NCBI GenBank assembly: GCA_030695565.1
Contig: JAUYRZ010000112.1
Span: 1,112 to 65,111, forward strand
From: Archangium sp.
GTDB taxonomy: Bacteria > Myxococcota > Myxococcia > Myxococcales > Myxococcaceae
Reading direction: 5' to 3'
Length of the DNA: 64,000 bases
The notes under the pieces were generated by a model. The model searched no databases and was not told the origin of the DNA. It saw only the letters and a list, made by a program, of their open reading frames with translations. Position numbers and translations under genes: made by a program. Shown here piece after piece: positions 20,849 through 60,182 of this stretch. The number at the start of each line of letters is the position of its first letter. Positions within the stretch are counted from its first letter, which is position 1.

Positions 20849-22456
20849 TCAGTGAACGCCGACAACTTCTCCGGCTTCAGTCAGATCGAGCCCATGAGCG
20901 GCGGGTAGCTTGGGCAGGCCGGGCATGGTGAGGATCTCCCCGGTGAGCGCGAGCAGGAAACCGGCCCCCGCCGAGACGCGCACCTGCCTGACGGTGACCA
21001 CGAAGTCGGTGGGCGCGCCTGGCTTCGAGGGGTCGTCGCTCAGGGAGAGATGGGTCTTGGCCAGGCACACCGGGAGATCGCCGAAGCCCCACTTGCGCAG
21101 CCGCTCGATGTCCTTCTGCGCTTCGGCGGAGAGCTCCGCGCCTTTCGCGCCGTAGACCTTCTTGGCGACCTCGTTGACCTTCTGCTCGAAGGGCTCGTGC
21201 AGCTCGTAGCTGTAACGGGGCGAGGTGGCGGGCTGCGCGATCACCTTCTGCACCGCCGCGGCGATGGCCTCACTGCCAGCGCCGCCCTTCAGGTAGCCGT
21301 TGTTGCGCGCGATGGTCACGTCGTCGGCGTGCGCGAGGCGCTCCACCAGGGCGAGCTCTTCTTCGGAGTCCTGGGCGAAGACGTTGAGCGAGAGGATGGG
21401 CTCGATGCCGAAGCCACGGATCGAGTGGAGGTGGCGCTTCACGTTCGCGTAGCCGCGTTCGATCGAAGCGAGCCCGGCTTCGTCGCCGCCGTGAGCGCGC
21501 ATGGCCCGCGCGGTGACCACCAGCACGACCGCGGACGGCCACAAGCCCGACATGCGGCACTTGAGGTCGAGGAACTTTTCTCCACCGAGATCGAAGGCGA
21601 ACCCGGCTTCTGTGACCACCACGTCGGCGAGGGCCAGCGCGGCGCGGGTGGCCATCACGGAGTTGCAGCCGTGGGCGATGTTGGCGAACGGGCCGCCGTG
21701 CACCAGCGCAGGCACGCCTTCGGTGGTCTGGGCGAGGTTGGGCAACAGCGCGTCGCCCAGCAGCGCGGCCATGGCGCCGACCGCGTTCAAGTCGGCGGCG
21801 GTGACGGGCTTGTTGTCTTTGTCGATGCCGACGATGAGGCGGCCGAGGCGGTGCTTGAGATCCTTCACGCCGTCGGCGAGGCAGAGGGTGGCCATGATCT
21901 CGGAGGCGGCGGTGATGTCGAAGCCGTCTTCACGGGGAACGCCGTGCGCCGAGCCGCCGAGGCCGATGACGGTGTTGCGAAGGAAGCGATCGTTCATGTC
22001 GATGCAGCGCTTCCAGGTGACCTGCTTGAAGCGGCGCTGGTCGAAGTTGATCGCGTTGTCGACGAGGGCGGCGAGCAGGTTGTTGGCGGCGGTGATCGCG
22101 TGCAGGTCGCCGGTGCAGTGGAGGTTGATGCGGGCGCTCGGCTCGAGCGTCGCCTGGCCACCGCCGGTGCCGCCGCCTTTGGCTCCGAAGACCGGGCCCA
22201 GTGAGGGTTCACGCAGCGCGGCCATGGTCTTCACGCCGCGGCGGGCGAGGCCCTGCACGAGGCCGATGGAGGTGGTGGTCTTCCCCTCGCCGTATTTGGT
22301 CGGGGTCATCGCGCTGACGAGCACGAGCTTGCCCTTCGTTCCCTGTTCGCGGAGGCGGTTGAGCGTGGGCCAGGAGAGCTTGGCGAGCGGGCCGTACAGC
22401 TCGAGATCTTCAGCGGTGAGGCCGACCTTCTTCGCCACGTCGAGGATGGGGAGCAT
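20849..22456 (-). CDS. fhs: Formate-tetrahydrofolate ligase
   Basis: Start moved to the ATG at 22456 (MLPILDVAKKVGL...). FTHFS signatures PTKYGEGKTTTSIGL and VHGGPFANIAHGCNS. Confidence 0.9.
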   Translation of the reverse strand: MLPILDVAKKVGLTAEDLELYGPLAKLSWPTLNRLREQGTKGKLVLVSAMTPTKYGEGKTTTSIGLVQGLARRGVKTMAALREPSLGPVFGAKGGGTGGGQATLEPSARINLHCTGDLHAITAANNLLAALVDNAINFDQRRFKQVTWKRCIDMNDRFLRNTVIGLGGSAHGVPREDGFDITAASEIMATLCLADGVKDLKHRLGRLIVGIDKDNKPVTAADLNAVGAMAALLGDALLPNLAQTTEGVPALVHGGPFANIAHGCNSVMATRAALALADVVVTEAGFAFDLGGEKFLDLKCRMSGLWPSAVVLVVTARAMRAHGGDEAGLASIERGYANVKRHLHSIRGFGIEPILSLNVFAQDSEEELALVERLAHADDVTIARNNGYLKGGAGSEAIAAAVQKVIAQPATSPRYSYELHEPFEQKVNEVAKKVYGAKGAELSAEAQKDIERLRKWGFGDLPVCLAKTHLSLSDDPSKPGAPTDFVVTVRQVRVSAGAGFLLALTGEILTMPGLPKLPAAHGLDLTEAGEVVGVH

Positions 22457-22586
22457 TGGGGCCCTTGAGATAGTCCCGCGGCGGGCGTGGGTCCATGGCC
22501 CCTGCGGCTCGAGGGGTGGGTGGTTTTGTGTGGGCTTCGGCTTCGTGCGCCGCGTACGTGCGGAGTTGCGCAGGGGGTCACAAACC

Positions 22587-23141
22587 TCAATCCACCTTGA
22601 GGTCACCGGAAATCATGTCCATCGCGCAGGCGAAGTGAACCTTCCCGGGCTGCTTCGGGACGAAGGTCACTTCCACCGGCTTGGCGAGGGGCAGCGGGAC
22701 GGAGAGGCCGAACTCTTTCAGCACGATGTCGGTCGCACAGGTTCCTTCGACAGTGCGCGTGACGACCAGCGTTACCGGAGTGCCCGCTTTCAAGGAGGGA
22801 ACTTTCCCCACCACGAACCCCTCGTCGGTGACTGCGACTTCGACACGCACGGGGGCGGGCGCAGAGAACTTCACCAACGCTGCCGTGGGCGTCTTCGCAC
22901 CCGCCCTGAGGTGAACGACGACTCGAAGTCCGGGGGCGAGATCCGATGCAGTCGCTCCCTTGCCGCCATTCTCGAAGCGCGTCTCTTTGTCGAAGCTGAC
23001 CACCTCAGGCTCCTTCTTTTCGGTCGTGACTGCCACCTGCGTGCCGTCAGCACTCGCGACGACGCCCTTGAGGTGGCCTGCGCCGTGCGCGAAGCCGACG
23101 GTGGAAAGGAGGACGCTGAGGGTGATGAGAGTTCTATTCAT
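22587..23141 (-). CDS. Periplasmic cupredoxin-like (Cupredoxin_1-type) metal-binding protein
   Basis: ATG at 23141 gives signal peptide MNRTLITLSVLLSTVGFAHG. The C-terminal domain ends KPGKVHFACAMDMISGDLKV, as in cupredoxin-like domains found in copper loci. Confidence 0.6.
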   Translation of the reverse strand: MNRTLITLSVLLSTVGFAHGAGHLKGVVASADGTQVAVTTEKKEPEVVSFDKETRFENGGKGATASDLAPGLRVVVHLRAGAKTPTAALVKFSAPAPVRVEVAVTDEGFVVGKVPSLKAGTPVTLVVTRTVEGTCATDIVLKEFGLSVPLPLAKPVEVTFVPKQPGKVHFACAMDMISGDLKVD

Positions 23142-23784
23142 GACGATGCTCCGGAGGATTGGTGATGGGTGAGGGGGATGAAGGTGACGGGGGTTCGCCG
23201 CGGAGGAACTCGTCCTCTTCCAGCTCTTCGCGCAGCTCATGGGGTGTGCGAGGCAGATGGGCGCGGATCTCCGCGAGCTCGCTCTCGGTCAAATCCGGCA
23301 GGGTGCGGATGAATGCGACGAGTCCCCAACTCTCGAGATCGTCGTCGCCCGGTTCTCCCCAGGCAGGCATGCCCGTCAGCCGGATTCCATTCTTGATGGC
23401 TGAGTAGAGTTCACCGTCGCTCTGCCGCTGCGTCGAGGTTGCCCGCATGTCGGGTGCTCGGGGGTAGAGCCGCTGACCCATCGCCGTATCGCCCGCCCCC
23501 CCCACCCCATGACAGGTGGCGCAGTGTGAGGCCCAGTGCATGCGCGCTTCCTGAAGCAATTCAGGAGATATCGGAGGGGCTCGCAGCTTCTTCGCCTCAC
23601 TCGTCACTGCCATTCTTCGAGCGGTCTGGGCGGCGAAGGCTTCAATCCAGCTGGGCTCGTCCCGCGTGGAGAAGCCACCTCGAATCATCAACAGGGCAGC
23701 CCCGGCTCCGCCGATGGCCAGCACAACGCTGGCGGCACCGATGAACGCGAGGACGCGCTGGCTCCTGGGGTTTTCCATGCTCAC
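23134..23784 (-). CDS. Membrane-anchored class I c-type cytochrome
   Basis: N-terminal TM helix, a single heme motif CATCHG, and downstream MPAWG (Met ligand context). The stop overlaps the next start by 8 nt. Confidence 0.75.
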   Translation of the reverse strand: MSMENPRSQRVLAFIGAASVVLAIGGAGAALLMIRGGFSTRDEPSWIEAFAAQTARRMAVTSEAKKLRAPPISPELLQEARMHWASHCATCHGVGGAGDTAMGQRLYPRAPDMRATSTQRQSDGELYSAIKNGIRLTGMPAWGEPGDDDLESWGLVAFIRTLPDLTESELAEIRAHLPRTPHELREELEEDEFLRGEPPSPSSPSPITNPPEHRHE

Positions 23785-23845
23785 CTCTCTGCGCGAGACC
23801 GTTCCTGCGTGACACCCTCGACGTATCGCTTCGCGATGGGCCTCG

Positions 23846-24238
23846 TCACGAGCCGGCCGCCTGGTACGAGGAGAAGTTCGCTTCGTTCTCGAAGTAGACC
23901 ACCGCGCCCGCCTGATCCTGCGCGATGACGGCGCTCGACTTGTCCACCTCGCGGCCCGAGAAAGGGTCGATGGCCATGCGAGCTGCTCGATCTTGCGCGA
24001 GGCGCGACTTGCACATCGCGCAGCACCCGAAATAGGTGCGCCCCTCGACCTCGACGGGGATCTGCGGGCGGCCCATGAACTGATTGTTCACCATGCAGAC
24101 CTGATCCGCCTTGTCGACCAGCCTGAGCTGACGGGTCTTCGAAGACGAGACCACCGGGGGCGGCGCCGGTGTTCGCTCACAGGCGACCGCGAGCGAGGCG
24201 AAGAGAAAGAGACTGACGGCGGCGCGCTGAACGTTCAT
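23846..24238 (-). CDS. TRASH/YHS-like metal-binding lipoprotein
   Basis: ATG at 24238. Lipobox LFASLAVAC. Cys pattern C-x22-CC-x2-C (DQVCMVNN...YFGCCAMCKSRL), typical of TRASH/YHS metal-binding domains. Confidence 0.65.
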   Translation of the reverse strand: MNVQRAAVSLFLFASLAVACERTPAPPPVVSSSKTRQLRLVDKADQVCMVNNQFMGRPQIPVEVEGRTYFGCCAMCKSRLAQDRAARMAIDPFSGREVDKSSAVIAQDQAGAVVYFENEANFSSYQAAGS

Positions 24239-24245
24239 GCCGCTG

Positions 24246-24272
24246 ATAGCCGCGGCACCGCTGAGGCGTGAC
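24246..24272 (-). promoter_or_regulatory. Near-consensus second-ECF-type promoter (GTCACG-N16-GCTAT, one mismatch) 7 nt upstream of the TRASH lipoprotein ATG
   Basis: Minus strand reads GTCAC gcctcagcggtgccgcg GCTAT cagcggc ATG. It differs from the six exact sites only at the first base of the -10-like box. Confidence 0.35.
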
Positions 24273-24331
24273 TCACTTTCGGGGCTTACTCGGAACATGG
24301 CGGAACTCGTCGGAAGGGGTGATGCCCCCAA

Positions 24332-24357
24332 GACGCAGCGCCGCAGGGCCGCTTACA
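24332..24357 (-). promoter_or_regulatory. CorE-type ECF promoter candidate (TGTAAG-N16-CGTC) for the TRASH-cytochrome c-cupredoxin operon
   Basis: Minus strand reads cggTGTAAGcggccctgcggcgctgCGTCttgg. One of five sites sharing the same boxes and an identical 16-nt spacer. Confidence 0.55.
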
Positions 24358-24366
24358 CCGAAGTGT

Positions 24367-24963
24367 TCAGGCGCAGCCCCCGCCGGGCTGACCGCAGGTG
24401 CAGTCGAGACAGCCGTGACTCGCGCACGTGCCGCAACTCCGCTCGAGGCGCTGCTTGAGCGCCTGGCGAGCGCGGTGCAGCCGAACCGTTGCGTTGTTCG
24501 GGGTAATCGACAGAGAAGACGCCACCTCCGACAACGGGGTCTCCTGAAGATCGACCCTGACGATCATCTCGGCGTACTCAGGCTTCAACGTTGGCAGCAG
24601 GCGGGTCATGCAGGCGCACACGGCGTCTTTGAGCTCGAGCTCGAAACCTTCGAAAGTTTCCCGGGCATGGGCCTCGACGGCGCGGGCCTCGGTGGCGCCT
24701 CGGCGGTAGTGGTCGATCAGCGCGTTGCGCAGCAGCCGGTAGAACCAGGCCACCGCACTCTCATCGGCCTCGATGGTGGCGCTCTTCTCGACCGCGCGAA
24801 CGAACGCCGTCTGCAGCAGCTCCTCGGCGACCGCGCGGCTCGAGACGCGGGCCTCGAGAAACGACAGAAACTGGCGGTGATTGGAGACCAGCCGCTCGAC
24901 CACACCTTCCGTCATCGGCAGGAGCGCATCGTTCGTGGTTGCCATGAGCGAGTTGAGTAGCAC
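24367..24963 (-). CDS. corE: CorE-like ECF sigma factor with C-terminal Cys-rich domain
   Basis: Sigma-70 region 2 (AWFYRLLRNALIDHYRR) and region 4 (LSEVASSLSITPNNATVRLHRARQALK). A CxC (AVCAC) sits in the linker. The C-terminal tail CGTCASHGCLDCTCGQPGGGCA has 7 Cys. No adjacent anti-sigma gene. The gene lies inside a copper locus, as described for Myxococcus xanthus CorE. Confidence 0.75.
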   Translation of the reverse strand: MLLNSLMATTNDALLPMTEGVVERLVSNHRQFLSFLEARVSSRAVAEELLQTAFVRAVEKSATIEADESAVAWFYRLLRNALIDHYRRGATEARAVEAHARETFEGFELELKDAVCACMTRLLPTLKPEYAEMIVRVDLQETPLSEVASSLSITPNNATVRLHRARQALKQRLERSCGTCASHGCLDCTCGQPGGGCA

Positions 24964-24967
24964 GGGC

Positions 24968-25606
24968 TCACCCCTTGATCGAGGTGAGGAGGCTCACGCC
25001 ACCCTCAACGATGAACTGAAGGGACATCGCGCCGAGCACCAGCCCCAGGACGCGCTGAACCGCCGCCATCACCGAGGGGCCGACAGCGCCCGAAATCGCC
25101 GAAGCGCTGCGGAGCACCACGAAGGAGACGACGAAGGTGATCGCGACCGCGACGAGGACGGCACAGACCTGGCTCGGGCCCGTCGCGCGCGACATCAGCA
25201 TCATCACCGCGGCCATCGCCCCGGGACCGGAGAGCAGCGGAATCGCCAGCGGCACCACGGCGATGTCGTCTTTCGCCTTCGCATCGTCGAGCTCTTCCTT
25301 GCTGCAACGGCAGGCCGCCTGCTTCGCCCTGAGCATGTCGAGCGCGGTGAGGAGCAGCAGGAGCCCGCCCGCCATCCGGAAGGCGTCGATGCTGATCCCG
25401 AGCAGGTCCAGGAGGAACCTGCCTCCGATGGCGAAGAGAAAAAGGACCGCGGCGCCCACCACGCTGGCTCGGAGTGCGATGCGCCGCATCTCTGCTGCCG
25501 TGCGCCCGGCCGTCATCGACGCAAAGGCGGGCACCACGCCCAGGGGCTCGACGATGACGAAGATCGTCGAGAGGGCCGCTACGAAGAAGCTCCAGGTTTC
25601 ACTCAT
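24968..25606 (-). CDS. MarC-family (UPF0056) integral membrane protein
   Basis: 212 aa, 6 TM segments, N-terminal FVIVEPLGVVPAF motif typical of the MarC family. It lies 4 nt upstream of the sigma gene. Confidence 0.75.
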   Translation of the reverse strand: MSETWSFFVAALSTIFVIVEPLGVVPAFASMTAGRTAAEMRRIALRASVVGAAVLFLFAIGGRFLLDLLGISIDAFRMAGGLLLLLTALDMLRAKQAACRCSKEELDDAKAKDDIAVVPLAIPLLSGPGAMAAVMMLMSRATGPSQVCAVLVAVAITFVVSFVVLRSASAISGAVGPSVMAAVQRVLGLVLGAMSLQFIVEGGVSLLTSIKG

Positions 25607-25640
25607 GTCTCGTCTCCCGATGGTGTCGAACGGACACGCT

Positions 25641-25666
25641 GACGGGGGGCGAGCTGGAGCCTTACA
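25641..25666 (-). promoter_or_regulatory. CorE-type ECF promoter candidate (TGTAAG-N16-CGTC) upstream of marC-corE
   Basis: Minus strand reads cgcTGTAAGgctccagctcgcccccCGTCagcg. It lies about 35 nt upstream of the marC ATG, the position expected for autoregulation of the sigma gene. Confidence 0.55.
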
Positions 25667-25690
25667 GCGCGAGGGCGCCGCTTCCTGGGG

Positions 25691-26974
25691 TCAGCTCTGT
25701 CTCTCGGGATCGATGCCGTCGGCAGTCAGCCGCTCCTGAGAGGCGGGCTCGGCCACCGTGCCCTTCGGATGCTGGTACCAGCCCGTGCCGTCTTCCTGGT
25801 CGGGGCGCGCGCGCACCTTGAGCACCGTGAACATGCCGCCCATGTCGATGGACGCGAACGGCCCCTTGCCGCCCATCATGGGGATCGAGTTCGTCGGCAT
25901 CTTCATTTCCATCTGGGACATGGCGCCCATGCCGTCGTGGCCCATCGTCATGTAGCTGGGCACCAGCGCTTGAACGCGACGGTCGATTCGACGTGCGTCT
26001 GCGCCGATCATCACGGGGAAGCCGTGGCCCATCTGGTTCATCACGTGGTGGGTCATGTGGCAGTGCATCGCCCAGTCGCCAGCCTCTCTGGGAACGAACT
26101 CGAACACGCGAACAGCGCCCACCGGCACGAGGAAGGTGGTCTCGGGGTGGCGAGCCGACTGCGGCACTTCGCCTCCGTCAGTCCAGGTCAGCTCGGCGCT
26201 GAGGCCGTGGAGATGAATCGGGTGGTGATCCATCGGCGAGAGGTTCCCGATGCGGATCCGCACGCGCTCTCCGACCCCCATCACCAACGGTGCGGTCGCC
26301 GGAAATGCCTTCGAGTTGAAGGTGAGGACGTTGAAGTCCTGCATTGCGTTCGGGTCAGGCCGGGCCGCGCCCGGGTGAATGAGCCACTCGTGCGCCATCA
26401 AGGCGAAGTCGCGATCGACGCGGGGCCCGCGGGGCACTTTGGGGTGCACCACGATCATCCCGTTCATGCCCAGGGCCATCTGGGTCATCTCGTCGAAGTG
26501 CGGGTGGTACATGAACGTGCCCGCGTCTTTGAACGTGAACTCGTAGAGGAACGTCTCCCCCGGCTCGATCGGCTTCTGGGTGAGGCCCGAGACACCATCC
26601 ATCCCGTTGGGAAGAATGACGCCGTGCCAGTGCATCGTGGTCGCTTCGGGAAGGCGGTTCGTGACGTAGAGCCGCACCCGATCGCCCTGCGTCACTTCGA
26701 TGGTCGGGCCCGGCGTCGAGCCGTTGTACCCCCACGCTTTGATCTTCAACCCTGGCGCGAGCTCATGATCGAACTCGTGAGCCACCAGTTGGCCCACCTT
26801 GACTCCGCCTACCAACTTGAGGGGAAGCGTCGAGCCGTTGGGGGTGATCACTCCCTTTTGGCCACCGGGAGCCACCACCACTGAAGGCGCCGCAACGGTC
26901 TTGGCGAACACATCCTTCGCTCCCAACGCACCGCCTGCGACCATGCCCAGCTGCAACAATTCACGACGGTTCAT
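25691..26974 (-). CDS. Tat-exported three-domain multicopper oxidase with Met-rich region
   Basis: ATG at 26974 gives a Tat-like signal, MNRRELLQLGMVAGGALGA. Copper ligand motifs HWHG, YHPH, HPIHLHG, HCHMTHH. Met-rich segment MTMGHDGMGAMSQMEMKMP...MMGG. Confidence 0.85.
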   Translation of the reverse strand: MNRRELLQLGMVAGGALGAKDVFAKTVAAPSVVVAPGGQKGVITPNGSTLPLKLVGGVKVGQLVAHEFDHELAPGLKIKAWGYNGSTPGPTIEVTQGDRVRLYVTNRLPEATTMHWHGVILPNGMDGVSGLTQKPIEPGETFLYEFTFKDAGTFMYHPHFDEMTQMALGMNGMIVVHPKVPRGPRVDRDFALMAHEWLIHPGAARPDPNAMQDFNVLTFNSKAFPATAPLVMGVGERVRIRIGNLSPMDHHPIHLHGLSAELTWTDGGEVPQSARHPETTFLVPVGAVRVFEFVPREAGDWAMHCHMTHHVMNQMGHGFPVMIGADARRIDRRVQALVPSYMTMGHDGMGAMSQMEMKMPTNSIPMMGGKGPFASIDMGGMFTVLKVRARPDQEDGTGWYQHPKGTVAEPASQERLTADGIDPERQS

Positions 26975-26975
26975 T

Positions 26976-28376
26976 TCAATGTCCTCCTGAAGAGTCGACA
27001 GCCATGGAGTTGCTGCCTGGCACTGCGCCCAGCACCAGCGGGGTCGAGCGACCGGCAAGCAGCAGCTCCAGAGCCGCACGTGCCTTCCACGCATCGAGCG
27101 TCGCGTCGACCTGCGAGATGGCCGCCTCCGTCACTTCGCGCTGCGCGGAGAGCACCTGAAACACGCCCACCTGCATGGCGTTGTACTGCAGCACCGTCTG
27201 CTCCAACTGTTGTTGGCGGGCGGGTACCAGGCGCTCTGCGTAGTGGCGCGCGCGGCGGCCTGCCGACTCCACCCGGTTGAGCGTCATGCGTACGGCGGAG
27301 CGCACCTGCAGCGCTTGCCCTTCTGCCCGCGCCCTGAGCCCGTCGTACTCGCTGCGCGCCGACAACTGCCGTCCCTGAGCGCGATCGAAGATGGGCAAAC
27401 CAACGGTGACGTGGCCGCCGAGCTCCCAGAGGTTCGCGTCGCGTTCACCGTGAAAGCCCGCGGAGAGGTGCGGTAGCCAGGCTTCGGTCTTCGCCATGCC
27501 GACCTTGCGGCTCGCCGCTTCGGCGCGGCTGAACAGCTCTGCGAGCTCCAGACTGGCCTCGATGGCCTTCGCTTCGACCGCGTCGCCGGTGGGGACCTCT
27601 TTGGGCACCGGCAACTGATCCGCGAAGGTCCACCGGGTGCGCGAGCCGGTGAGGCCCAACTTTCGGGTGAGGGCTTCGCGCCCATCGAGCAGCGCGTTCT
27701 CTGCCTCGGCGACTTGAACGCGCGACAGCTCGACTGCCGCCAGCTCATTTGCCAGTGCAAGCGCAGGCAGGTTTCCGACCCGGGAGAGCTCGAGCGCCGT
27801 CTCGTAGGAGGCCTGCTGCGAGGCGAAGGCCCGCAGTCGCAGGTCGAGCTTCTGCTGGAGCGCTTGCGCCTCGTAATAGGCAACGCGAGTCGACCAGGTG
27901 AGGTCGAGCAGGGCGCCCGCTGCTTTCCAGCGCTCCGCATCGAGCGCGGCCGAGGCAACCCCCGCGCGCAGCGGCGCAAGGAAGGTCGCGGTGAGGTTGA
28001 GCTCGAGACCAATGTCGATCTGAATCGGTTGTTGGTCCCCACCGGGGTCTCTCAGCTCGAACTCCACTTCGGGGTTGGGCACGAGGCCCGCCTGCATGAA
28101 CTGACCGCGGGCGATGCCGATCTCCGCAAGCGAGGCTCTGGCCTCACGGTTGTTGATCAGCGCCAGGCGCACTGCTGCATCGGCGGTGAGCGGCTGCTCG
28201 AGAAGTCGGTCGACCTCTTCGGGTACTGCCTCGGGGGTCTCGAGGCGAGGAAGGTCGAACTCAGCGACGGCGGCCCTTGCGGTGACCGTGCGACGAATCG
28301 AGGCCAGGTCTTCGTTCAGGCCAGTGGTGGCGCAGCCCGCCGCCAGGAGCGCAATGAGGATCGTGGGCTTCATCAT
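26976..28376 (-). CDS. TolC-family outer-membrane efflux lipoprotein (orphan OMF)
   Basis: ATG at 28376/28373. Lipobox LLAAGC. Two OEP-type helical repeat halves. No RND or MFP gene in the same operon. Confidence 0.8.
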   Translation of the reverse strand: MMKPTILIALLAAGCATTGLNEDLASIRRTVTARAAVAEFDLPRLETPEAVPEEVDRLLEQPLTADAAVRLALINNREARASLAEIGIARGQFMQAGLVPNPEVEFELRDPGGDQQPIQIDIGLELNLTATFLAPLRAGVASAALDAERWKAAGALLDLTWSTRVAYYEAQALQQKLDLRLRAFASQQASYETALELSRVGNLPALALANELAAVELSRVQVAEAENALLDGREALTRKLGLTGSRTRWTFADQLPVPKEVPTGDAVEAKAIEASLELAELFSRAEAASRKVGMAKTEAWLPHLSAGFHGERDANLWELGGHVTVGLPIFDRAQGRQLSARSEYDGLRARAEGQALQVRSAVRMTLNRVESAGRRARHYAERLVPARQQQLEQTVLQYNAMQVGVFQVLSAQREVTEAAISQVDATLDAWKARAALELLLAGRSTPLVLGAVPGSNSMAVDSSGGH

Positions 28377-28855
28377 TTCGCCCCCGGGTTCTGGCTGAGG
28401 AAGCTGCGCCGACAAGAGGACGAGCAGAACCAGTACTGCGTTCCGTTGACCTTCAGGGTGCCGCCCTTCGCGGTCTTCGGGTCGATCTTCATCTTGCACA
28501 CGGGGTCGGTCACCATGGCCTCTGGCGCTGCTGCGGGCTGCTGCGTCGCTGAACCGCCATGCTGATGATGCTGATGACCCTCGTCCTTCTTCTGCTCGGG
28601 TTGGGGCGCGGGAGCAGGTTCTGGCATCGGCGCTCCGCCATGCTGATGCCCTCCTTCGGTGGTGACCTCGGCGCACGGTGAGCCTGATGCGGTCGGCAGC
28701 CCGCAGTTCGGCGCAGCCAGCGGGTCTTCGGGCGCCAGGGTGCTGGCGACCGCGAGGCGCACGGTTTCCGGCTCGGGGGCAGCCCGAGTCTGGTGAGCAG
28801 AGGGACCTGCGCAAGCGGCAAGAAGCAGGAGAGAAAGAGGGACTCGAGGTGACAT
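28373..28855 (-). CDS. His-rich YHS-domain lipoprotein
   Basis: ATG at 28855. Lipobox LLLAAC. His-rich stretches GGHQHGG and EGHQHHQHGG. C-terminal YHS motif DPVCKMKIDPKTA...YWFCSSSC. Confidence 0.75.
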   Translation of the reverse strand: MSPRVPLSLLLLAACAGPSAHQTRAAPEPETVRLAVASTLAPEDPLAAPNCGLPTASGSPCAEVTTEGGHQHGGAPMPEPAPAPQPEQKKDEGHQHHQHGGSATQQPAAAPEAMVTDPVCKMKIDPKTAKGGTLKVNGTQYWFCSSSCRRSFLSQNPGAK

Positions 28856-28876
28856 GACGGCTCCGAGACGGTGGAA

Positions 28877-28902
28877 GACGCGACTACCAGCTGCGAATGA
28901 CA
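28877..28902 (-). promoter_or_regulatory. CorE-type ECF promoter variant (TGTCAT-N16-CGTC) for the YHS-OMF-MCO operon
   Basis: Minus strand reads acgTGTCATtcgcagctggtagtcgCGTCttcc. Same 16-nt spacer and same -10 box as the other four sites. The -35 box differs at one position. Confidence 0.45.
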
Positions 28903-28903
28903 C

Positions 28904-28930
28904 GTAGGCCACAGGTGCTTTTTCGTGACA
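28904..28930 (-). promoter_or_regulatory. Second-ECF-type promoter candidate (TGTCACG-N16-CCTAC), immediately upstream of the CorE-type box
   Basis: Minus strand reads acgTGTCACgaaaaagcacctgtggCCTACg. Its -10-like box ends 1 nt before the TGTCAT box. Confidence 0.5.
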
Positions 28931-28951
28931 CGTGCCGTGATTCTTCAGGGC

Positions 28952-30163
28952 CTAACGCGCCTCGACCGGCTTCGCCTCGCCGAGAATCTCGAAGGCCCGC
29001 GCCATGGTTTGGCCCAGGCAGGCCTTCAGCACTCCGAAGGTGTGTGGTTGGCCAAGTGTCACGCGCCCAACCAGCAGACCCCCACGACCCAGCAGCGCAA
29101 CGAACCGGCCGCGCGCGGGCTCACCCATCAGATGGCAGGTCTCATCGCCCTGGTGCTCGCCACTGAACTGCAGCCTCTTGCCGAAGAGTTCGGTGCTCCC
29201 CGATGGATTCGGGAAAGTGGCTTCCATCGCACCCACGGCATTCTGGCCCACGGAAAAGCCGTGCTGAGCAGCAAAGCCGTAGCTTTCCACGCGCAGGCGG
29301 CGGCCCAGCGATGGGCTCCAGGGTGAGGCCACGTCACCGGCGGCGAAGACGCCTGGCGCTGAGGTGCGGCCGAACTCGTCCACGACCACGCCGTCGCCGA
29401 GCGTGAGGCCGCTTCCTGCGAGCCACCCGATGGCAGGCTCGGCTCCGAGCGCGACGACCACAAGATCAGCCGCATGGACCTCTCCGAAGGTCGACAGCAC
29501 ACCTTCGACGCGCGTCGCTCCGAGCACTCGTTCGACCTGCGTACGAAGACGCACCATGACGCCCATCGCTTCGATGAACGGAGTCAGTGCCGCGCCGGCC
29601 AGAGCTCCGAGCGAACGAGAAAGCAGCGCGCTTCCCCTCTCGAGAACTGTTGCGTGCGCACCGCGTTCCTTCGCGGCGCTGGCGACTTCGAGACCGAGCA
29701 ACCCACCACCGATCACCACGATGCGCGACCCGGGCCGCAAGTCTTCGCGCAGCGCGACCGCATCTTCCCAGGTGCGCACGGAGCGCACTCCGGGCAGATG
29801 CGCGCCGGGCACCGCGAGGCGTCGTGGTGAACTGCCTGTGGCGATGATCAGACGGTCCCACGAGACCGCTTCACCCGAGGAGAGCGCGACGTGCTGCTTC
29901 TCGAGCGAGAGAGCCGTTGCGATGACTCCACGGCGCACTTCGATTCGCTGCTCACTGTAGAAACGTTCGGGCTGCAGCCAGAGCGAGGGGAGGGTGACGC
30001 GCTCGTCTCTGAGGACCTCCTTTGAAAGCGCCGGCCGCTGGTAGGGCCACGCTTGCTCGGCGCCCAACATCAGCACCGGGCCTGCGTGGCCGTACTCACG
30101 GATCGCCTCCGCTGCGCGACTTCCGGCCAGGCCTGCGCCCACGATGACGATCGAGCCTGACAT
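28952..30163 (-). CDS. FAD/NAD(P)H-dependent oxidoreductase (ferredoxin/rubredoxin reductase-like, AIF family)
   Basis: ATG at 30163. Dinucleotide motifs IVIVGAGLAG and IVVIGGGLLGLE, plus AAGDVA. No N-terminal CxxxxC redox disulfide. Confidence 0.8.
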   Translation of the reverse strand: MSGSIVIVGAGLAGSRAAEAIREYGHAGPVLMLGAEQAWPYQRPALSKEVLRDERVTLPSLWLQPERFYSEQRIEVRRGVIATALSLEKQHVALSSGEAVSWDRLIIATGSSPRRLAVPGAHLPGVRSVRTWEDAVALREDLRPGSRIVVIGGGLLGLEVASAAKERGAHATVLERGSALLSRSLGALAGAALTPFIEAMGVMVRLRTQVERVLGATRVEGVLSTFGEVHAADLVVVALGAEPAIGWLAGSGLTLGDGVVVDEFGRTSAPGVFAAGDVASPWSPSLGRRLRVESYGFAAQHGFSVGQNAVGAMEATFPNPSGSTELFGKRLQFSGEHQGDETCHLMGEPARGRFVALLGRGGLLVGRVTLGQPHTFGVLKACLGQTMARAFEILGEAKPVEAR

Positions 30164-30165
30164 CT

Positions 30166-30381
30166 TCAGGCCGCCCGCGACTCGTAGCCTGCATCGCGCA
30201 GCGCGCTCACGAGGCTGACGATCTTCACCCCCGCGACGTGCTTCACCACCACCTTGCCTTCGCGCAGCTTCACCTCGACCTGATCGACTCCGTCCACGTC
30301 TTTGAGGGCGGTGCTGATGTGGTGAATGCAGCTGGGGCAAGTCATGCCGTCGACGCTCAACAGGGTATCCGTGGTGTCCAT
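30166..30381 (-). CDS. copZ: CopZ-like heavy-metal-associated (HMA) metallochaperone
   Basis: 71 aa from the ATG at 30381. GMTCPSC metal-binding motif. AGGAG ribosome-binding site. The stop lies 2 nt before the oxidoreductase start. Confidence 0.85.
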   Translation of the reverse strand: MDTTDTLLSVDGMTCPSCIHHISTALKDVDGVDQVEVKLREGKVVVKHVAGVKIVSLVSALRDAGYESRAA

Positions 30382-30431
30382 GTGCTTCTCCTGGTGTGAC
30401 GCGCGGACGAAGTGTTCGCGGTCGAGAAGGA

Positions 30432-30457
30432 GACGCCTTCGGTTTTTGGGCATTACA
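30432..30457 (-). promoter_or_regulatory. CorE-type ECF promoter candidate (TGTAAT-N16-CGTC) for copZ-oxidoreductase
   Basis: Minus strand reads aggTGTAATgcccaaaaaccgaaggCGTCtcct. Confidence 0.55.
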
Positions 30458-30490
30458 CCTCGCCCCGAAAGTGACGGTCGCGCAGTCACC

Positions 30491-30516
30491 TGTAATGCCG
30501 CGCAGCGAGCCGCGTC
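30491..30516 (+). promoter_or_regulatory. CorE-type ECF promoter candidate (TGTAAT-N16-CGTC) for copA
   Basis: Plus strand reads caccTGTAATgccgcgcagcgagccgCGTCcccc, 22 nt upstream of the copA ATG with CAGGAGGG in between. Confidence 0.55.
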
Positions 30517-30537
30517 CCCCGCTTCAGGAGGGACACC

Positions 30538-32814
30538 ATGTCCACGAACTCGCAGACGCAGGGCCAGGAAGAAGTGCTTCAGGTGATGGGGATGACGTGC
30601 GCGGCGTGCGTGCGGCGCATTGAAGGAGCGCTCAGCAAGGTCACCGGGGTTCAGGCGGCTTCAGTGAACTTGATCACCGAGAAGGCGACCGTCCGCTTCG
30701 ATCGTTCGCTCACCAGCATGGCCGCGCTCGAGCAGGCCATCGTGAAGGCAGGCTACGGCGTCGCGCCGCAGGCACCTGCCGAAAAGGAAGTGCCGGCAAA
30801 TCAACTGAGCCAACTGGAGGCCACTGAGCGCACCGAGCACGAGCAGCTCAAACGAGACACCATCGTGGCTGCGCTGCTGGCCGTGCCGCTGTTGGTGCTG
30901 GGCATGTCTCACGGCGCGATCCCGGGCGCCGACGGCCCGGTCGGTCGGGTGGTGCAGCTGCTCCTCGCCACGCCGCTGGTCTTCGGTCCGGGGCGTCGAT
31001 TCCTGGCGCTCGCCTGGAAGGTCACGCTTCACGGTGCAGCCGACATGAACACCCTCGTCGCCCTGGGCGCGCTCTCCGCGTGGGGCTGGTCGACGGTTGC
31101 CGTGTTGCTCCCTCAACTGTTTCCGCACGCGGAGCATGGTCACCGGCCGCACATTTTCTTCGAGGCGGTCGTCGTGATCGCCTTCGTGCTCGCCGGCAAG
31201 ATGCTCGAAGCGCGCGCCCGCCGCCGCCTTTCAGATGCAGTGCGTGGGTTGCTCTCCAGGCTGCCACCTGAAGCCACGCGGTTGGTCGACGGCATCGAGT
31301 CGAAGGTGAAGGTCTCCTCGCTGCAAGCGGGTGACGTGGTGCTCGTGCGGCCGGGCGAGAGCGTGCCCGCAGACGGCGACGTGCTGCAGGGCAGCTCCGC
31401 GGTCGATGAGGCGATGTTGACGGGGGAAGGTCTGCCCGTCGAGAAGCGGCCTGGCGACCAGGTCTTCGGCGGCACCGTGAACGCGCACGGTGCGCTGACC
31501 GTGAAGCTGATTCGCACCGGCGCCCACACCGCGCTCAGCCGGATCGTGCAGGCCGTCGAATCAGCGCAAGGCAGCCGCGCGCCCATCTCGCGCCTCGCGG
31601 ATCGGGTCAGCGCCATCTTCGTGCCGGTGGTGCTGGGCATCGCCCTGGTCACCTTCGGCGTGTGGTGGGCCCTCGACCCGACAGCGGCGGGGCTCGCGAC
31701 GGCCATGCAGCACCTGGTGGCGGTGTTGGTCATCGCCTGTCCTTGCGCGCTGGGCCTTGCGACTCCCGCGGCTGTCGCGGTGGGCACGGGCCGCGGCGCC
31801 GAGTTGGGTGTGCTGGTGAAAGGCGGAGAGGTGCTCGAGTCGCTGAGCCGCGTGCAGACGGTGCTGCTCGACAAGACCGGCACGGTCACCTCCGGGAAGC
31901 CGACGCTCACCGACGTGGTGGCGCTGGGTGATGAGGCTGCACTGCTCCGAAGGGTCGTCGCGGTGGAGAAGCTCAGTGAGCACCCTGTCGCGAAGGCGGT
32001 GGTCGAGGGCGCCGAAGCGCGGCTCAAGGAGCGCGTGCCTGCCGCTCAGGGGGATTTCTTCAACGAGCCCGGCGCGGGCGTGGAGGCGGCTGGCATTCGC
32101 ATCGGCACGAGGGGCTGGCTCGAGCTCGCCGGCATCGATCCGACTCCGCTCGAGGCCCAGGCCGAGGAACTCGCCTCACGAGGCCGCACGCCTTCCTTCG
32201 TCGGTGACGTGCCCTCCAGGACGCTGCTCGGGCTGGTGGCCGTGATGGATTCGCCTGTGCCTGAGGCCAGGGCGGTGATCGACGCACTGAAGACGCTTGG
32301 ACTCGAGGTGGCGCTGGTGACCGGTGATCGACGACGCACCGCACAGGCCGTCGCGAAAGAGCTGGGCATCTCCCGGGTGGAAGCGGAGGTGAAGCCAGAG
32401 GGGAAGGCGGCCGTGGTCGCGAAGGTGAAGGCGCAGGGGCGGGTGGTCGCCATGGTCGGTGACGGGATCAACGACGCTCCGGCCCTCGCCGCCTCTGATG
32501 TCGGCATCGCCATTGGTACCGGTACGGACGTCGCCGCAGCAACCGCTGACGTGGTGTTGCTGCGTGGAGGCATCTCGGCGCTGCCCCGCGCCATTGGCCT
32601 GGCGCGCGCGACGCTGCGCAACATCCGCCAGAACCTGTTCTGGGCCTTCGTCTACAACGTCGCGGGCATTCCCCTGGCGGCGGGTGCGTTGGTGCCGCTC
32701 TTCGGCCTCGAGCTCTCGCCCGTCTTCGCCAGCGCCGCGATGTCGCTCTCGAGCTTGTCGGTGCTGACGAACGCGCTGCGGCTTCGCCGCTTCGCTGCTG
32801 TTCAGTCGAAGTAG
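30538..32814 (+). CDS. copA: Copper-translocating P1B-type ATPase
   Basis: N-terminal [16 protein letters not shown] motif [11 protein letters not shown]. Phosphorylation site [15 protein letters not shown] hinge. Confidence 0.92.
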
Positions 32815-32906
32815 AGCGTCGTAATCGCGGCGTGTCGTCGCCCCTGGGTTGCCCGAAGCGTCGAGCCTGGTCTAAGGGCCATGACTCAATCCAGCCCGGA
32901 GCAATC

Positions 32907-34187
32907 ATGCGTTCGTTCGTCGTTGCCTCAACGTTCCTCGTTCTCCTCCTGGGTTGCTCGACGACGCCTGCTCCCTGTGGCCCTGAGATGTGTTCGGGCT
33001 GCTGTGACTCCAACGGCATCTGCCAGGCGGGTGACGTCATCGACGGCTGCGGCACCGGCGGGCTGGCTTGCAACGTCTGCGTCGCGGCGGTCGGCCAGGT
33101 CTGCTCCAACATGACCTGCGTTATCCCCGAGCAGGATGCCGGCACCAGGCTCGGGGTGGAGGTCGGTACTGGCGACCACACCGCGTCGTCAGTGACGCTG
33201 ACGCAGATTGCTGTCGCGGCCGCCGGGCTGAACAAGCCCACAGACCTCGGCTTCAATCCGCTTCGGCCCGATGAACTGTGGGTGGTCAACGCGGGCGACG
33301 ACAGTGTCCTCATCATCACCAACGCAAGCGCATCCTCACGGACGAGCGAACGACGAAAGGACGGCTACGCGGTGCACTTCATGTCGACGCCGTCTTCGAT
33401 CGCTTTCGGCGGTTCCCCGACCACGTTCGGCCGACAGGGAACGTTCGCGACCTGCCAGGAGTCGCGGAACAGCTACGGTGGCGCTGCGGCTCCGAACGAT
33501 TTCATGGGCCCGAGCTTGTGGTCTTCGGATCTGACTATTTTTGCGAAGCTGAACCCGAACGGGCTGGGCTCGCATTTGGACATGCTCCACGCCAGCCCTC
33601 TGTGCATGGGCATCGCTCACGAAGCCAACAATTCATATTGGGCCTTCGGCGGTCTCTCGAACGCCATCTTGAAGTACGACTTCGGTGTCGATGACGGCAT
33701 TGGAAATGATGAACACGGCGACGGAGAGGCGTACCAGTACATCACCGGCCAGTTGAAGTACGCGCCCGGCATTCCCAGTCATCTTGCGTTCAGGCAGGCC
33801 GACCAAAGCCTGTTCATCGCAGATACAGGCAATGGCCGAATCGTGAAGATGGACACGACAACGGGCACGCGGGGGCCGCGGCTCCAGTCGTTCGAACCGA
33901 TGGCCGCGCACTATCGAATGGAGAACGCAGTCGCAGCTGACGTGGTCAGCAAACTGAGCGCACTCGTTGAGGCCCCGTCTGGTCTCGAGCTCAAGAACGA
34001 CCTGCTCTACGTTTCCGACAATGGAAACAGTCGCATCTCGGTCTTCACTCTGAGCGGCGAAAGAGTGAACTACCTCGACACTGGGTTGCCGCCGGGCTCG
34101 CTGGCCGGAATGGCGTTTGGCCCGGATGAGAAGCTCTACATCGTAGACATGGTGGGCAATCGCGTCTTGCGCATCGATCCCCCATAA
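32907..34187 (+). CDS. NHL-repeat beta-propeller lipoprotein with Cys-rich N-terminal module
   Basis: ATG at 32907. Lipobox LLLGCS. Cys-rich segment CGPEMCSGCCDSNGICQAG...CNVC. NHL-like repeats LFIADTGNGRIVKMD, LYVSDNGNSRISVF, LYIVDMVGNRVLRID. Confidence 0.7.
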   Translation: MRSFVVASTFLVLLLGCSTTPAPCGPEMCSGCCDSNGICQAGDVIDGCGTGGLACNVCVAAVGQVCSNMTCVIPEQDAGTRLGVEVGTGDHTASSVTLTQIAVAAAGLNKPTDLGFNPLRPDELWVVNAGDDSVLIITNASASSRTSERRKDGYAVHFMSTPSSIAFGGSPTTFGRQGTFATCQESRNSYGGAAAPNDFMGPSLWSSDLTIFAKLNPNGLGSHLDMLHASPLCMGIAHEANNSYWAFGGLSNAILKYDFGVDDGIGNDEHGDGEAYQYITGQLKYAPGIPSHLAFRQADQSLFIADTGNGRIVKMDTTTGTRGPRLQSFEPMAAHYRMENAVAADVVSKLSALVEAPSGLELKNDLLYVSDNGNSRISVFTLSGERVNYLDTGLPPGSLAGMAFGPDEKLYIVDMVGNRVLRIDPP

Positions 34188-37938: not shown

Positions 37939-38379
37939 ATGAGATCATTCTTTTTCGCAGCGGTGTTCGTCCTGACCGCGGGTTGTGGCGCTTCAATGCC
38001 CGGCAACGCCGCGGATTCAGGAGCGAACGTCGATGATGCGGGCACAGCCGAAGGAATGGATGCAGGGCGTGACGCGGGGGCCGGCGCTGTCGACGCGGGC
38101 CCGGTGATGCCCGGAGCCCCTGTCCTGACCTCCGTCTCGGTGGTGACTCACGGCACGATGGCCATCAACTGGCAGCTCCCCGCTTCGGGGTGCTCGACGT
38201 TGGCGTTGCGAATGAAGGTGGGCGCCGGTGCCTACTCGACGGTTCGCTCCCTGACGGGGGTCGCGACCTCGACGCAGTACAGCCCGGGTCACGCCAACGG
38301 CACGTACTGCTACCAGCTCACCTGCACCCTGCAGGGGCTGGAGTCGGCTGCCTCGAACGAGCGGTGCGCGACCCAATGA
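37939..38379 (+). CDS. Small FN3-like lipoprotein
   Basis: ATG at 37939. Lipobox VLTAGC, Asp/Ala-rich linker, then an FN3-like beta domain (PVLTSVSVVTHGTMAINWQLP...YCYQLTC). The stop overlaps the next start (ATGA). Confidence 0.6.
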   Translation: MRSFFFAAVFVLTAGCGASMPGNAADSGANVDDAGTAEGMDAGRDAGAGAVDAGPVMPGAPVLTSVSVVTHGTMAINWQLPASGCSTLALRMKVGAGAYSTVRSLTGVATSTQYSPGHANGTYCYQLTCTLQGLESAASNERCATQ

Positions 38380-39257
38380 GAATCGCGCTGCTGATTCTCG
38401 CCCTGGCTGGTTGCGGGCAAGGCAAGACGGAGCCCCGAAAGTATCCGCCGACAGGGCAGACGAAGACCTTCAACCTCACCGCCCGTGACGTGGAGTGGAC
38501 GGTGGGGCCCGGCGCCGTCTACCTGGCCTGGACCTACGATGGAACGGTGCCCGGGCCGCAGCTCGACGTCACGGCAGGCGACACCGTGGTGATCAACCTG
38601 AGCAACGAGAGCAATCACCCCGTCTCGATCCACACGCACCTCGTCGAGTTCGAGCAGGCGCAAGACGGCGTCGAGCCTTCGTCGTGGGCGCAGCCGGGGC
38701 AGACCGTCACGGTGACCTGGAAGACGAGCTACGCGGGGGCGGTGCCCTACCACGACCACGCCGATGAGGGCCTCGGTGTGGGGCGAGGGCTGATCGGTGC
38801 GCTGGTGATTCACGCGCCCGACGAAGTGAAGGCGAATGAGCACGTGGTCGTGCTCACGGACCTTCTCCCGGAGTACTTCAAGACGCTCCCGGGCGTGGCC
38901 GACCCCATCACGGGCGAGTTTCCTGACGCCGGCACCTATCGAGGGGCGCACCAGTACCTGCACACCATCAACGGCAAGGCGTACGAAGAGTCGGTGCCTC
39001 ACTTCACCGGCACTGTGGGCGAGCTGAGCCGCTGGCGCATCCTCAGCATCGGGCAGGAGGTCCACACCTGGCACCTGCATGGGCACCGCTGGGTCGACGG
39101 AGATGGGCAGCTGACTGACAACATCCAGCTGGCGCCCGGCATGTACCGCACCTTCGAGTTCACCGAAGACGCGGTGGGTGACTGGCTGGTGCATTGCCAC
39201 GTGCCGAACCACATGGAGGGCGGAATGATGGCCCGCTACCGGGTGGTGCCGCGCTGA
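38376..39257 (+). CDS. Two-domain (small laccase-like) multicopper oxidase lipoprotein
   Basis: 293 aa. Lipobox LALAGC. All four copper-ligand motifs are present in only two cupredoxin domains: SIHTHL, YHDHAD, HTWHLHGHRW, HCHVPNHMEGGM. Confidence 0.8.
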   Translation: MRIALLILALAGCGQGKTEPRKYPPTGQTKTFNLTARDVEWTVGPGAVYLAWTYDGTVPGPQLDVTAGDTVVINLSNESNHPVSIHTHLVEFEQAQDGVEPSSWAQPGQTVTVTWKTSYAGAVPYHDHADEGLGVGRGLIGALVIHAPDEVKANEHVVVLTDLLPEYFKTLPGVADPITGEFPDAGTYRGAHQYLHTINGKAYEESVPHFTGTVGELSRWRILSIGQEVHTWHLHGHRWVDGDGQLTDNIQLAPGMYRTFEFTEDAVGDWLVHCHVPNHMEGGMMARYRVVPR

Positions 39258-43740: not shown

Positions 43741-44265
43741 ATGGCTCAGGGATCAGAATTGGACCTGCTGATGGGCCGGCTGGCCGATGGGGATCGCCAT
43801 GCCTTTTCCCCCCTGTTCAAGGCGCTCTGGTCACCCGCGCTCCGAGTGTGCAGCCGGATGATGGAACGAGAAGCGGACGCGGCCGATGCCGCCCAGGCGG
43901 CCATGATGAAGATCCTCGAGCGCGCTGCCGAATACGACAAGAAGCGCCCCGCCTTGCCCTGGGCGCTGGGGATCGCTGCGTGGGAGTGCAAGACCCTGCT
44001 CAAGCGGCAGCAACGCCACAAAGAGAGCTCGGCCGAGGTTTCGCTCAGCGACGGAGGGGCGGCCACAGAGGAAGTCGAGCAGCGCCTCCTGGTCGAAGCG
44101 GCGATGCACGCGATGGGCACGCTGTCAGAGGCGGACCAACAGACGCTGGTTTCGACCTACTGGGAGACCGCTTCTGCTGAAAAGGGAGCGACGTTCCGCA
44201 AGCGGAGAGAGAGGGCCCTGACCCGGCTGCGCGATACCTTCAGGAGGATTTATGGACTCGATTGA
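43741..44265 (+). CDS. ECF (sigma-70 family group 4) sigma factor
   Basis: 174 aa from the ATG at 43741. Region 2 (DAADAAQAAMMKILERA...) and region 4 (LSEADQQTLVSTYW...TFRKRRERALTRLR). Confidence 0.8.
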   Translation: MAQGSELDLLMGRLADGDRHAFSPLFKALWSPALRVCSRMMEREADAADAAQAAMMKILERAAEYDKKRPALPWALGIAAWECKTLLKRQQRHKESSAEVSLSDGGAATEEVEQRLLVEAAMHAMGTLSEADQQTLVSTYWETASAEKGATFRKRRERALTRLRDTFRRIYGLD

Positions 44266-48243: not shown

Positions 48244-48246
48244 GGC

Positions 48247-50776: not shown

Positions 50777-50814
50777 GTGAACCCTCCGGTCGTTTTCGGC
50801 GGCCCTCGTTGTCG

Positions 50815-50841
50815 ATAGGCGCGCGAGCCCGGCACCGTGAC
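50815..50841 (-). promoter_or_regulatory. Second-ECF-type promoter candidate (AGTCACG-N17-CCTAT) for cusCBA-1
   Basis: Minus strand reads ccaAGTCACggtgccgggctcgcgcgCCTATcgac, 38 nt upstream of the GTG at 50776. Confidence 0.5.
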
Positions 50842-51015
50842 TTGGTCGGTGTGCACGTTTGCGGCCGTTGAGTTCGCCCGGGACGTGGCGCAACCGCCGC
50901 AACAAACAGACTGCCGAGCGCACCAGTCGGCGCACACTTTGCGCTGGCTCTCGCGGCGCCCTCTTCGGCCGCATGAGTTGAACTCCTGCGCTTGCCAGCG
51001 AGCCGCAGATGCCGC

Positions 51016-53896: not shown

Positions 53897-53899
53897 GCC

Positions 53900-60170: not shown

Positions 60171-60182
60171 GGGTCCCTGGAA

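Follow-up and report, generated by a model that had tools for sequence, protein, structure and literature searches.

Probable CorE-type promoters upstream of five copper-related units in Archangium sp.

A cluster of copper-related genes in Archangium sp. (assembly GCA_030695565.1, contig JAUYRZ010000112.1) carries a series of short two-part boxes ahead of its genes, which raises the question of whether these boxes are promoters and, if so, which sigma factor reads them. A preliminary description of this 64,000-nt stretch (~66% G+C), hereafter the window, had listed four exact copies of TGTAAK-N16-CGTC with an identical 16-nt spacer. A pattern search recovered all four, coordinates and sequences included, and the fifth site of that description, the variant TGTCAT-N16-CGTC at 28877-28902 on the minus strand, was likewise present. 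From sequence comparison and by analogy with Myxococcus xanthus, we consider it very likely that the five boxes are extracytoplasmic function (ECF)-type promoters read by the CorE-type sigma factor encoded at 24367-24963.

Two of the exact boxes stand back to back. P(copA) (30491-30516, plus strand) reads TGTAAT-N16-CGTC, its CGTC ending 21 nt before the copA ATG at 30538, and P(copZ) (30432-30457, minus strand), again TGTAAT-N16-CGTC, ends 50 nt before the copZ ATG at 30381. The remaining three are on the minus strand. The variant box, P(YHS-OMF-MCO), precedes the genes for a YHS lipoprotein, an outer-membrane efflux protein (OMF) and a multicopper oxidase (MCO), with its CGTC ending 21 nt before the ATG at 28855. 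P(marC-corE) (25641-25666) is an exact TGTAAG-N16-CGTC followed by AGC, 34 nt before the marC ATG at 25606. The last exact box, of the operon for a TRASH-like protein, cytochrome c and cupredoxin (24332-24357), is also TGTAAG-N16-CGTC; it begins 10 nt past the sigma stop codon and its CGTC ends 33 nt before the ATG at 24298. All five sites are intergenic, co-oriented with copper-related operons and 21-50 nt upstream of start codons.

The sigma factor itself (24367-24963, minus strand) carries the Pfam domains Sigma70_r2 (residues 27-89) and Sigma70_r4_2 (residues 118-169) and no other Pfam domain; its best NCBIfam hit, SigZ, was below cutoff. It is 56% identical over the full length to the sigma factor of the M. 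xanthus corE locus (L027). The latter has Cys at 120/122 and 181/184/189/192/194/206 and Ala at 185, and since these positions match the published CorE numbering exactly (PMC3107203, PMC6851896) we identify it as CorE. The linker motif C116-A-C118 of the Archangium protein aligns with CorE C120-Q-C122. Its Cys-rich C-terminal domain contains C177, C180, C185, C188, C190 and C197, among which C177, C180, C188 and C190 correspond to the invariant tail cysteines of CorE, 181, 184, 192 and 194 (PMC3107203), and C185 to the activating Cys189. The core of the tail, SCGTCASHGCLDCTC, is identical in the two proteins. The Archangium sigma reads C180-A181-S-H-G-C185, with Ala at the equivalent of CorE residue 185, the metal-specificity position that is Ala in CorE and Cys in CorE2 (PMC6851896). 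The claim that this sigma is CorE-type is borne out by the identity, the linker CxC, the shared tail core, the six cysteines and the copper-type Ala, and as judged from its sequence the protein is a CorE-like (ECF44/ECF238) factor, orthologous to CorE. Its neighbours, MarC and the 150-aa TRASH-like protein, had no anti-sigma domain by Pfam or NCBIfam. The closest relatives of the window are metagenome-assembled Archangium genomes; in one of the related loci (L001) the sigma gene is 97% identical, and the marC-corE and TRASH-like operon boxes are both unchanged.

The corE locus of M. xanthus contains four exact TGTAAG-N16-CGTC boxes. They are found upstream of a copB-type ATPase gene, a cupredoxin gene, the operon of a 139-aa open reading frame (ORF), an efflux-protein gene, cuoB and corE, and a 74-aa HMA gene convergent with corE. 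Deletion of corE in M. xanthus leads to the loss of copper induction of copB, cuoB and MXAN_3427, and CorE shifts a 265-bp copB promoter fragment in the presence of copper plus bathocuproine disulfonate (BCS) (PMC3107203). The comparison with CorE-dependent genes of M. xanthus that had been proposed for the window gave the following result: the exact box is present upstream of copB, the cuoB/corE operon and the HMA gene, and the same hexamer, spacer and -10 element recur in the window, as the assignment of the boxes to CorE-type promoters would have it. The published text describes the CorE motif as seven invariant residues, with an AAC-type -35 element and a conserved G in the -10 region, 16-18 nt from the -35 triplet (PMC3107203); TGTAAG with the G of CGTC may fit this description. 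Full-text literature searches returned no paper stating TGTAAK-N16-CGTC; the ECF Hub may already have this motif for ECF238.

The box is also found well beyond M. xanthus. We analysed 80 loci (1.29 Mb) around relatives of the sigma gene from Myxococcota, Planctomycetota, Acidobacteriota, Gemmatimonadota and other phyla. TGTAAN-N16-CGTC was matched 83 times in these loci, compared with 0-5 matches for any other spacer from 10 to 23 nt and 1-5 matches when the -35 or -10 word was scrambled, and at least one exact site was present in 59 of the 80. Flanks of a full 10 kb were available for 44 loci; of the 51 sites in these, 30 lay at -1 to +2 kb relative to the sigma gene, and hardly any lay far out in the flanks. 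Positions that the search did not impose were conserved too: G or C at -1 (97%), GC after the hexamer, TG before CGTC and a C three bases past CGTC (88% of sites), giving the extended consensus (G/C)TGTAAKGC ... CGTC-W-G-C. Enrichment in intergenic DNA, which the preliminary description expected of genuine promoters, was evident across the 80 loci, with 73% of sites being intergenic compared with 18% of random positions. A co-oriented gene start followed within 150 nt of 56% of sites (7% of random positions), the distance from CGTC to the start codon being usually 20-50 nt. The downstream ORFs (n = 64) included 22 for P1B-ATPases, 16 for HMA, 15 for YHS, 10 for MauE and 7 for cupredoxin proteins, as well as the sigma gene itself (5) and outer-membrane efflux proteins (4). 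The commonest arrangement in other taxa is a box directly downstream of the sigma gene; in some taxa a box stands immediately ahead of the sigma gene or of a cupredoxin-sigma pair. The sixth base of the -35 hexamer follows lineage, being C in Planctomycetota and T or G elsewhere.

Two groups of loci show particular forms of the box. In Planctomycetota and related loci (L025, L029-L031, L033, L035, L038, L054 and L057, at ~10600-11500), TGTAAC-N16-CGTC is placed directly after the sigma gene and the gene behind it encodes an HMA-MauE fusion or a MauE-domain protein. A paralogous CorE-like locus in Archangium/Vitiosangium (L008 11501, L010 11894, L012 10642) carries TGTAAG-N16-CGTT, with a P1B-ATPase containing YHS and HMBD domains as the target. 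The last base of the -10 element is therefore not invariant.

Could a different ECF sigma of the same genome read these boxes? Such a candidate exists in the window, a second ECF-type sigma at 43741-44262 on the plus strand, 13 kb away and surrounded by Cus-type efflux systems and multicopper oxidases, and a -35 element of TGTAAC type is used in other ECF groups, for example by ECF16 RpoE7. We nevertheless regard this as very improbable. In 59 of the 80 loci, which come from many taxa, the box is found together with a CorE-like sigma gene, with a peak within 1-2 kb of it, and in M. xanthus it stands at the genes assigned to CorE by genetics. The second sigma gene and the efflux and oxidase genes next to it have no box in front of them. 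The only related motif that our literature search retrieved was that of Sinorhizobium meliloti RpoE7 (ECF16), TGTAAC-N16-CGAA.

The second sigma gene is followed by a gene for a Cys-rich 181-aa membrane protein (44252-44794, plus strand; HACSGGHCSTWCLPAC), which had no Pfam or NCBIfam match. No CorE box was found near the two genes, whose products are a candidate metal-sensing sigma/anti-sigma pair.

The region between copA and copZ contains a perfect 9-bp inverted repeat, GGCATTACA (30449-30457) and TGTAATGCC (30491-30499), with 33 nt between the arms, exactly as had been claimed. In principle, GGCATTACA-N33-TGTAATGCC could be the operator of a dimeric or tetrameric copper regulator (CsoR, CopY, CueR-like or similar), the CGTC words being incidental. 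The perfection of the repeat would fit this, as would the second copper-dependent regulator of M. xanthus copA (PMC3107203) and a further palindrome, GTGAC-N9-GTCAC, which lies between the boxes and keeps its arms in the sister strain L085 (GCA_031412555), although it is not statistically significant. The arrangement of the repeat makes an operator hard to credit, however. Each arm is followed by CGTC at exactly 16 nt on its own strand, the other three sites of the window stand without a partner arm, and TGTAATGCC, which fits the extended -35 consensus, occurs in other genomes as a single unpaired box before one-directional genes (e.g. L034, L049, L061, L071, L072). Minicystis (L052), Nannocystis (L061) and a further three places also have boxes standing back to back, in many cases with an ATPase gene on one side and an HMA gene on the other. 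From one -35 element to the other the distance is 2, 12, 12, 12, 38 or 42 bp in these pairs and 33 bp in the window, unlike the fixed geometry of an operator, whereas the -35/-10 spacing is constant. We therefore rejected the operator reading, and the preference for two divergent promoters expressed in the preliminary description stands: the inverted repeat consists of two divergently oriented copies of the extended -35 consensus TGTAAKGCC.

The shorter palindrome, GTGAC-N9-GTCAC (30471-30489), is unique in the window (0.15 expected) and appeared in 14% of shuffles; in L085 three of its loop bases are changed and both arms are intact. A second regulator may act at copA/copZ, a suggestion made because M. 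xanthus copA has one. The copA and copZ boxes are intact in L085, in which four bases of the copZ-promoter spacer differ; they are likewise untouched by three changes in the DNA that separates them and by an insertion past the copA -10 element. Among the ~11 differences to L085 in the 156-bp intergenic region, none falls in the 20 box positions (~1.4 expected), a result in line with conservation but not significant alone. Metagenome contigs were also searched with the oxidoreductase encoded behind copZ for orthologous copZ/copA regions, yielding only relatives of 31-33% identity, unsuited to footprinting.

The two divergent promoters and the other boxes of the window were scored with a weight matrix trained on 77 sites from outside the window and outside its near-identical relatives. 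The marC-corE box had the highest score in the window (25.9), followed by the boxes of copA (22.0), copZ (19.9) and the TRASH-like operon (16.5). An additional exact match at 59720-59745 on the plus strand, absent from the earlier list and the fifth exact match of the window, scored 12.7, the YHS operon site 12.1, and the next best hit 6.7. In 50 simulated windows the top score was 14.7; scores of 12 or more are expected 0.26 times per window. The idea that the boxes are chance matches of a short degenerate pattern in GC-rich DNA has next to no probability left and is effectively refuted for the four intergenic exact sites: the 59720 match and the YHS operon site do score inside the null range of the matrix, but the window holds five exact TGTAAK-N16-CGTC matches where 0.05 are expected, none of 100 dinucleotide-preserving shuffles has more than one, the four sites (16.5-25.9) outscore every one of the 50 simulated windows, and the five regulon sites are conserved in sister strains and share their intergenic, co-oriented placement 21-50 nt from the starts of copper genes. 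The claim of a candidate autoregulatory site was supported as well: the top-scoring box precedes marC by 34 nt, and 4 nt separate the end of this gene from the sigma ORF.

The YHS operon site was the top one-mismatch hit within the window. We retained it because it lies 21 nt upstream of the operon, because its location matches that of the M. xanthus box upstream of the efflux-protein gene/cuoB operon, and because the orthologous position in L085 is a canonical TGTAAT box with a score of 21.7. It is therefore likely that the window strain carries a one-base A-to-C weakening of a real box. The same comparison (window 28373-28876) revealed that L085 has 27 nt inserted after the -10 box and ahead of the ribosome-binding region of the YHS lipoprotein gene (L085 ~4505-4531), and an additional His-rich repeat within this gene (~4800-4900).

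The 59720 match, TGTAAT-N16-CGTC, is antisense inside a PilT-like ATPase gene (59094-60182, minus strand). It has A at position -1, found in 1% of the reference sites, and no plausible downstream gene; together with its score in the null range, this led us to reject it as a member of the regulon. It is probably a chance match or, less probably, an antisense promoter.

A sigma-70 consensus scan of 22400-33000 gave no sigma-70-like promoter, and terminator-like hairpins in the same scan were at chance level (5 found, 5.4 expected). Rfam and tRNA scans of the window gave no match. A generic ECF-like pattern, TGAAC-N17-CGTC, occurs four times in the window (8489, 26530, 52661 and 58947; 0.64 expected); these hits are mostly within or antisense to genes and are unexplained.

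Several points weigh against the assignment of the boxes to the CorE-type sigma. In M. xanthus, copA is only partly CorE-dependent and corE only partly autoregulated (PMC3107203), so other regulators may also act at the promoters of the window. The published motif comes from an in silico analysis, made by hand, of four M. xanthus sequences, and the methods of the same paper use an 'AAC' search for the -35 element, whereas the window boxes have AAG or AAT. No exact match was present in 21 of the 80 loci; several of these carry variants such as CGTT or GGTAAT, and the consensus therefore looks looser than written. Finally, the YHS operon site taken alone is marginal, at the upper edge of the null score distribution.

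With these reservations, CorE-type control of the five boxes remains the reading we favour, and we infer the transcription starts, the copper response and the dependence on the sigma at 24367-24963 in Archangium by analogy with M. xanthus. RNA polymerase with the CorE-type sigma would use TGTAAK as the -35 and CGTC as the -10 element, 16 nt apart, with transcription predicted to start ~6-8 nt downstream of each CGTC. Like M. xanthus CorE, the sigma would need no anti-sigma factor; its linker CxC and C-terminal Cys-rich domain would bind copper, Cu(II) allowing promoter binding (on) and Cu(I) reversing it (off). Five units would respond. The first is copA, for an ATPase predicted to export Cu(I) from the cytoplasm, and the second, divergent from it, copZ with the flavoprotein oxidoreductase gene. 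The third would comprise the YHS lipoprotein, the outer-membrane efflux protein and the multicopper oxidase, here behind a -35 element weakened to TGTCAT. Transcription of the fourth, marC and corE, would result in positive autoregulation, and the fifth would supply the TRASH-like protein, cytochrome c and cupredoxin.

The gene content claimed for this cluster was confirmed with Pfam and NCBIfam. CopA (30538-32814, plus strand; 758 aa) is a copper-exporting P1B-type ATPase with an N-terminal HMA domain (Pfam E1-E2_ATPase, Hydrolase and HMA; NCBIfam ATPase-IB1_Cu, 552.8 bits compared with a cutoff of 397 bits). On the minus strand, copZ (30166-30381) encodes a CopZ-like HMA metallochaperone of 71 aa with a GMTCPSC motif (Pfam HMA, E = 1.8e-14); the M. 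xanthus protein encoded where the CorE-dependent HMA gene MXAN_3427 is located shows 57% identity to it. Starting 2 nt past the copZ stop codon is the gene for a 403-aa FAD/NAD(P)-dependent oxidoreductase of the ferredoxin/rubredoxin-reductase family (28952-30163; Pfam Pyr_redox_2, E = 1e-60), whose best PDB matches are 6tuk and TodA 3ef6. The next operon begins with a His-rich lipoprotein gene (28373-28855), the 160-aa product of which has the lipobox LAAC and a C-terminal YHS/TRASH-type Cys motif (Pfam YHS, E = 4e-6, below the curated cutoff). It is followed by the outer-membrane efflux protein gene (~26976-28376; Pfam OEP, E = 1.7e-23), whose start at ~28376 we borrowed from gene calls on identical contigs (L084), and by a gene for a CuoB/CopA(Pco)-like multicopper oxidase (25691-27094; Pfam Cu-oxidase_3 and Cu-oxidase_2; NCBIfam copper_res_A, E = 2e-49, below cutoff), the true start of which is probably downstream of 27094.

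The remaining genes of the cluster are also on the minus strand. The marC gene (24968-25606) encodes a MarC-family integral membrane protein of 212 aa (Pfam MarC, E = 1.7e-54). Downstream of the sigma gene follow the gene for the 150-aa protein (23846-24298), which has a C-x(n)-CC-x2-C motif and a weak TRASH hit, and those for a cytochrome c (23134-23784) and a cupredoxin (22587-23240), both identified by Pfam. The 139-aa ORF of the M. xanthus operon was considered as a homologue of the YHS lipoprotein or of the 150-aa protein and rejected: it has no significant similarity to either, only a His-rich patch in common. Between the three co-directional minus-strand units from 28.9 to 22.6 kb no terminator-like site was found, so that transcription probably continues from the YHS operon into marC-corE and beyond corE into the TRASH-like operon. 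The minus strand also has a formate-tetrahydrofolate ligase ORF (20849-22606), which shares 20 nt with the end of the cupredoxin gene. This ORF may be reached by read-through from the TRASH-like operon, or its GTG start may be annotated too far upstream.

The copper island continues at 38190-58461, where two further multicopper oxidases (38190-39254, plus strand; 40119-41531, minus strand) and two Cus-type efflux systems (44809-50974, minus strand; 52559-58461, plus strand) are encoded, one of the membrane-fusion proteins having an HMBD domain. The weight-matrix scan found no CorE box at the multicopper oxidase and Cus-type genes of 38190-58461, which are presumably under regulators other than CorE.

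The pair formed by copZ and the flavoprotein gene (28952-30381, minus strand) is also found in two other taxa (L062 5484-6976 and L078 5185-6673; 43-44% identity), where it sits behind CorE-type boxes with a varying first base (GGTAAT, CGTAAT). The flavoprotein may act on copper as a cupric reductase, or else serve CopZ as a redox partner. A bolder reading joins two proposals, and we hold the combination to be rather doubtful: that the CorE box (~nGTAAK-N16-CGTY, with an invariant 16-nt spacer) is a cross-phylum signature and, under the same doubt, that the copZ-flavoprotein pair is a conserved, unstudied module in CorE-like regulons. The flavoprotein would then convert Cu(II) to Cu(I) in the cytoplasm, which would supply CopZ and CopA and, Cu(I) being the form that inactivates CorE, also turn this sigma off. 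If true, the transient 2-hour pulse of CorE activity would be built into the regulon itself, and the box would read off CorE-like regulons in Myxococcota, Planctomycetota, Acidobacteriota, Gemmatimonadota and others.

The assignment of the boxes to the CorE-type sigma gives a clean and testable definition of the promoters of a copper-sensing type of sigma factor that, in M. xanthus, needs no anti-sigma factor. Beyond the published text, it adds an explicit consensus with a strict 16-nt spacer, conserved flanking positions and recurrence in several phyla. The predicted copper regulon of Archangium gains MarC, the unit of TRASH-like protein, cytochrome c and cupredoxin, and the CopZ-linked flavoprotein, and the natural A-to-C variant in the -35 element between two sister strains is a ready-made experiment.

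How do these boxes compare with known systems? Like canonical ECF promoters, they are two-part and directional, with an AA-containing -35 element, a 16-nt spacer and a CGTC-type -10 element. The difference lies in the base after AA, which is T or G in the Myxococcota boxes and C in Planctomycetota, the usual ECF -35 element having AAC. In Bacillus subtilis, sigma-W promoters read TGAAAC-N16-CGTA and those of sigma-X TGTAAC-N17-CGAC. CorE2 and the group ECF44/ECF238 (PMC4937300; Casas-Pastor et al. 2021, PMC7826278) are ECF sigma factors without an anti-sigma factor, controlled by way of a Cys-rich extension at the C-terminus and the CxC of the linker, two elements that the sigma of the window shares. 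CorE2 of M. xanthus (Marcos-Torres et al. 2016, PMC4937300) is a Cd- and Zn-responsive factor with Cys at the position of the Ala in CorE and in the sigma of the window (PMC6851896).

The closest match is the CorE regulon of M. xanthus (Gomez-Santos et al. 2011, PMC3107203), with an orthologous sigma that has the same CxC, six-Cys tail and Ala. The boxes described here very probably mark this regulon in another myxobacterial genus, a known system and no new kind of regulatory element. Target classes common to both are a P1B-ATPase, an HMA chaperone, an efflux protein/multicopper oxidase operon, a cupredoxin and the sigma itself. The gene order differs. In the window corE shares a strong box with marC, whereas the M. 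xanthus gene comes after cuoB; the copA and copZ promoters diverge from adjoining positions, with T as the sixth base of the -35 hexamer at both; and the box of the efflux/oxidase operon is weakened to TGTCAT. The window also adds a flavoprotein oxidoreductase gene behind copZ and, directly downstream of the sigma gene, the genes for the TRASH-like protein, cytochrome c and cupredoxin.

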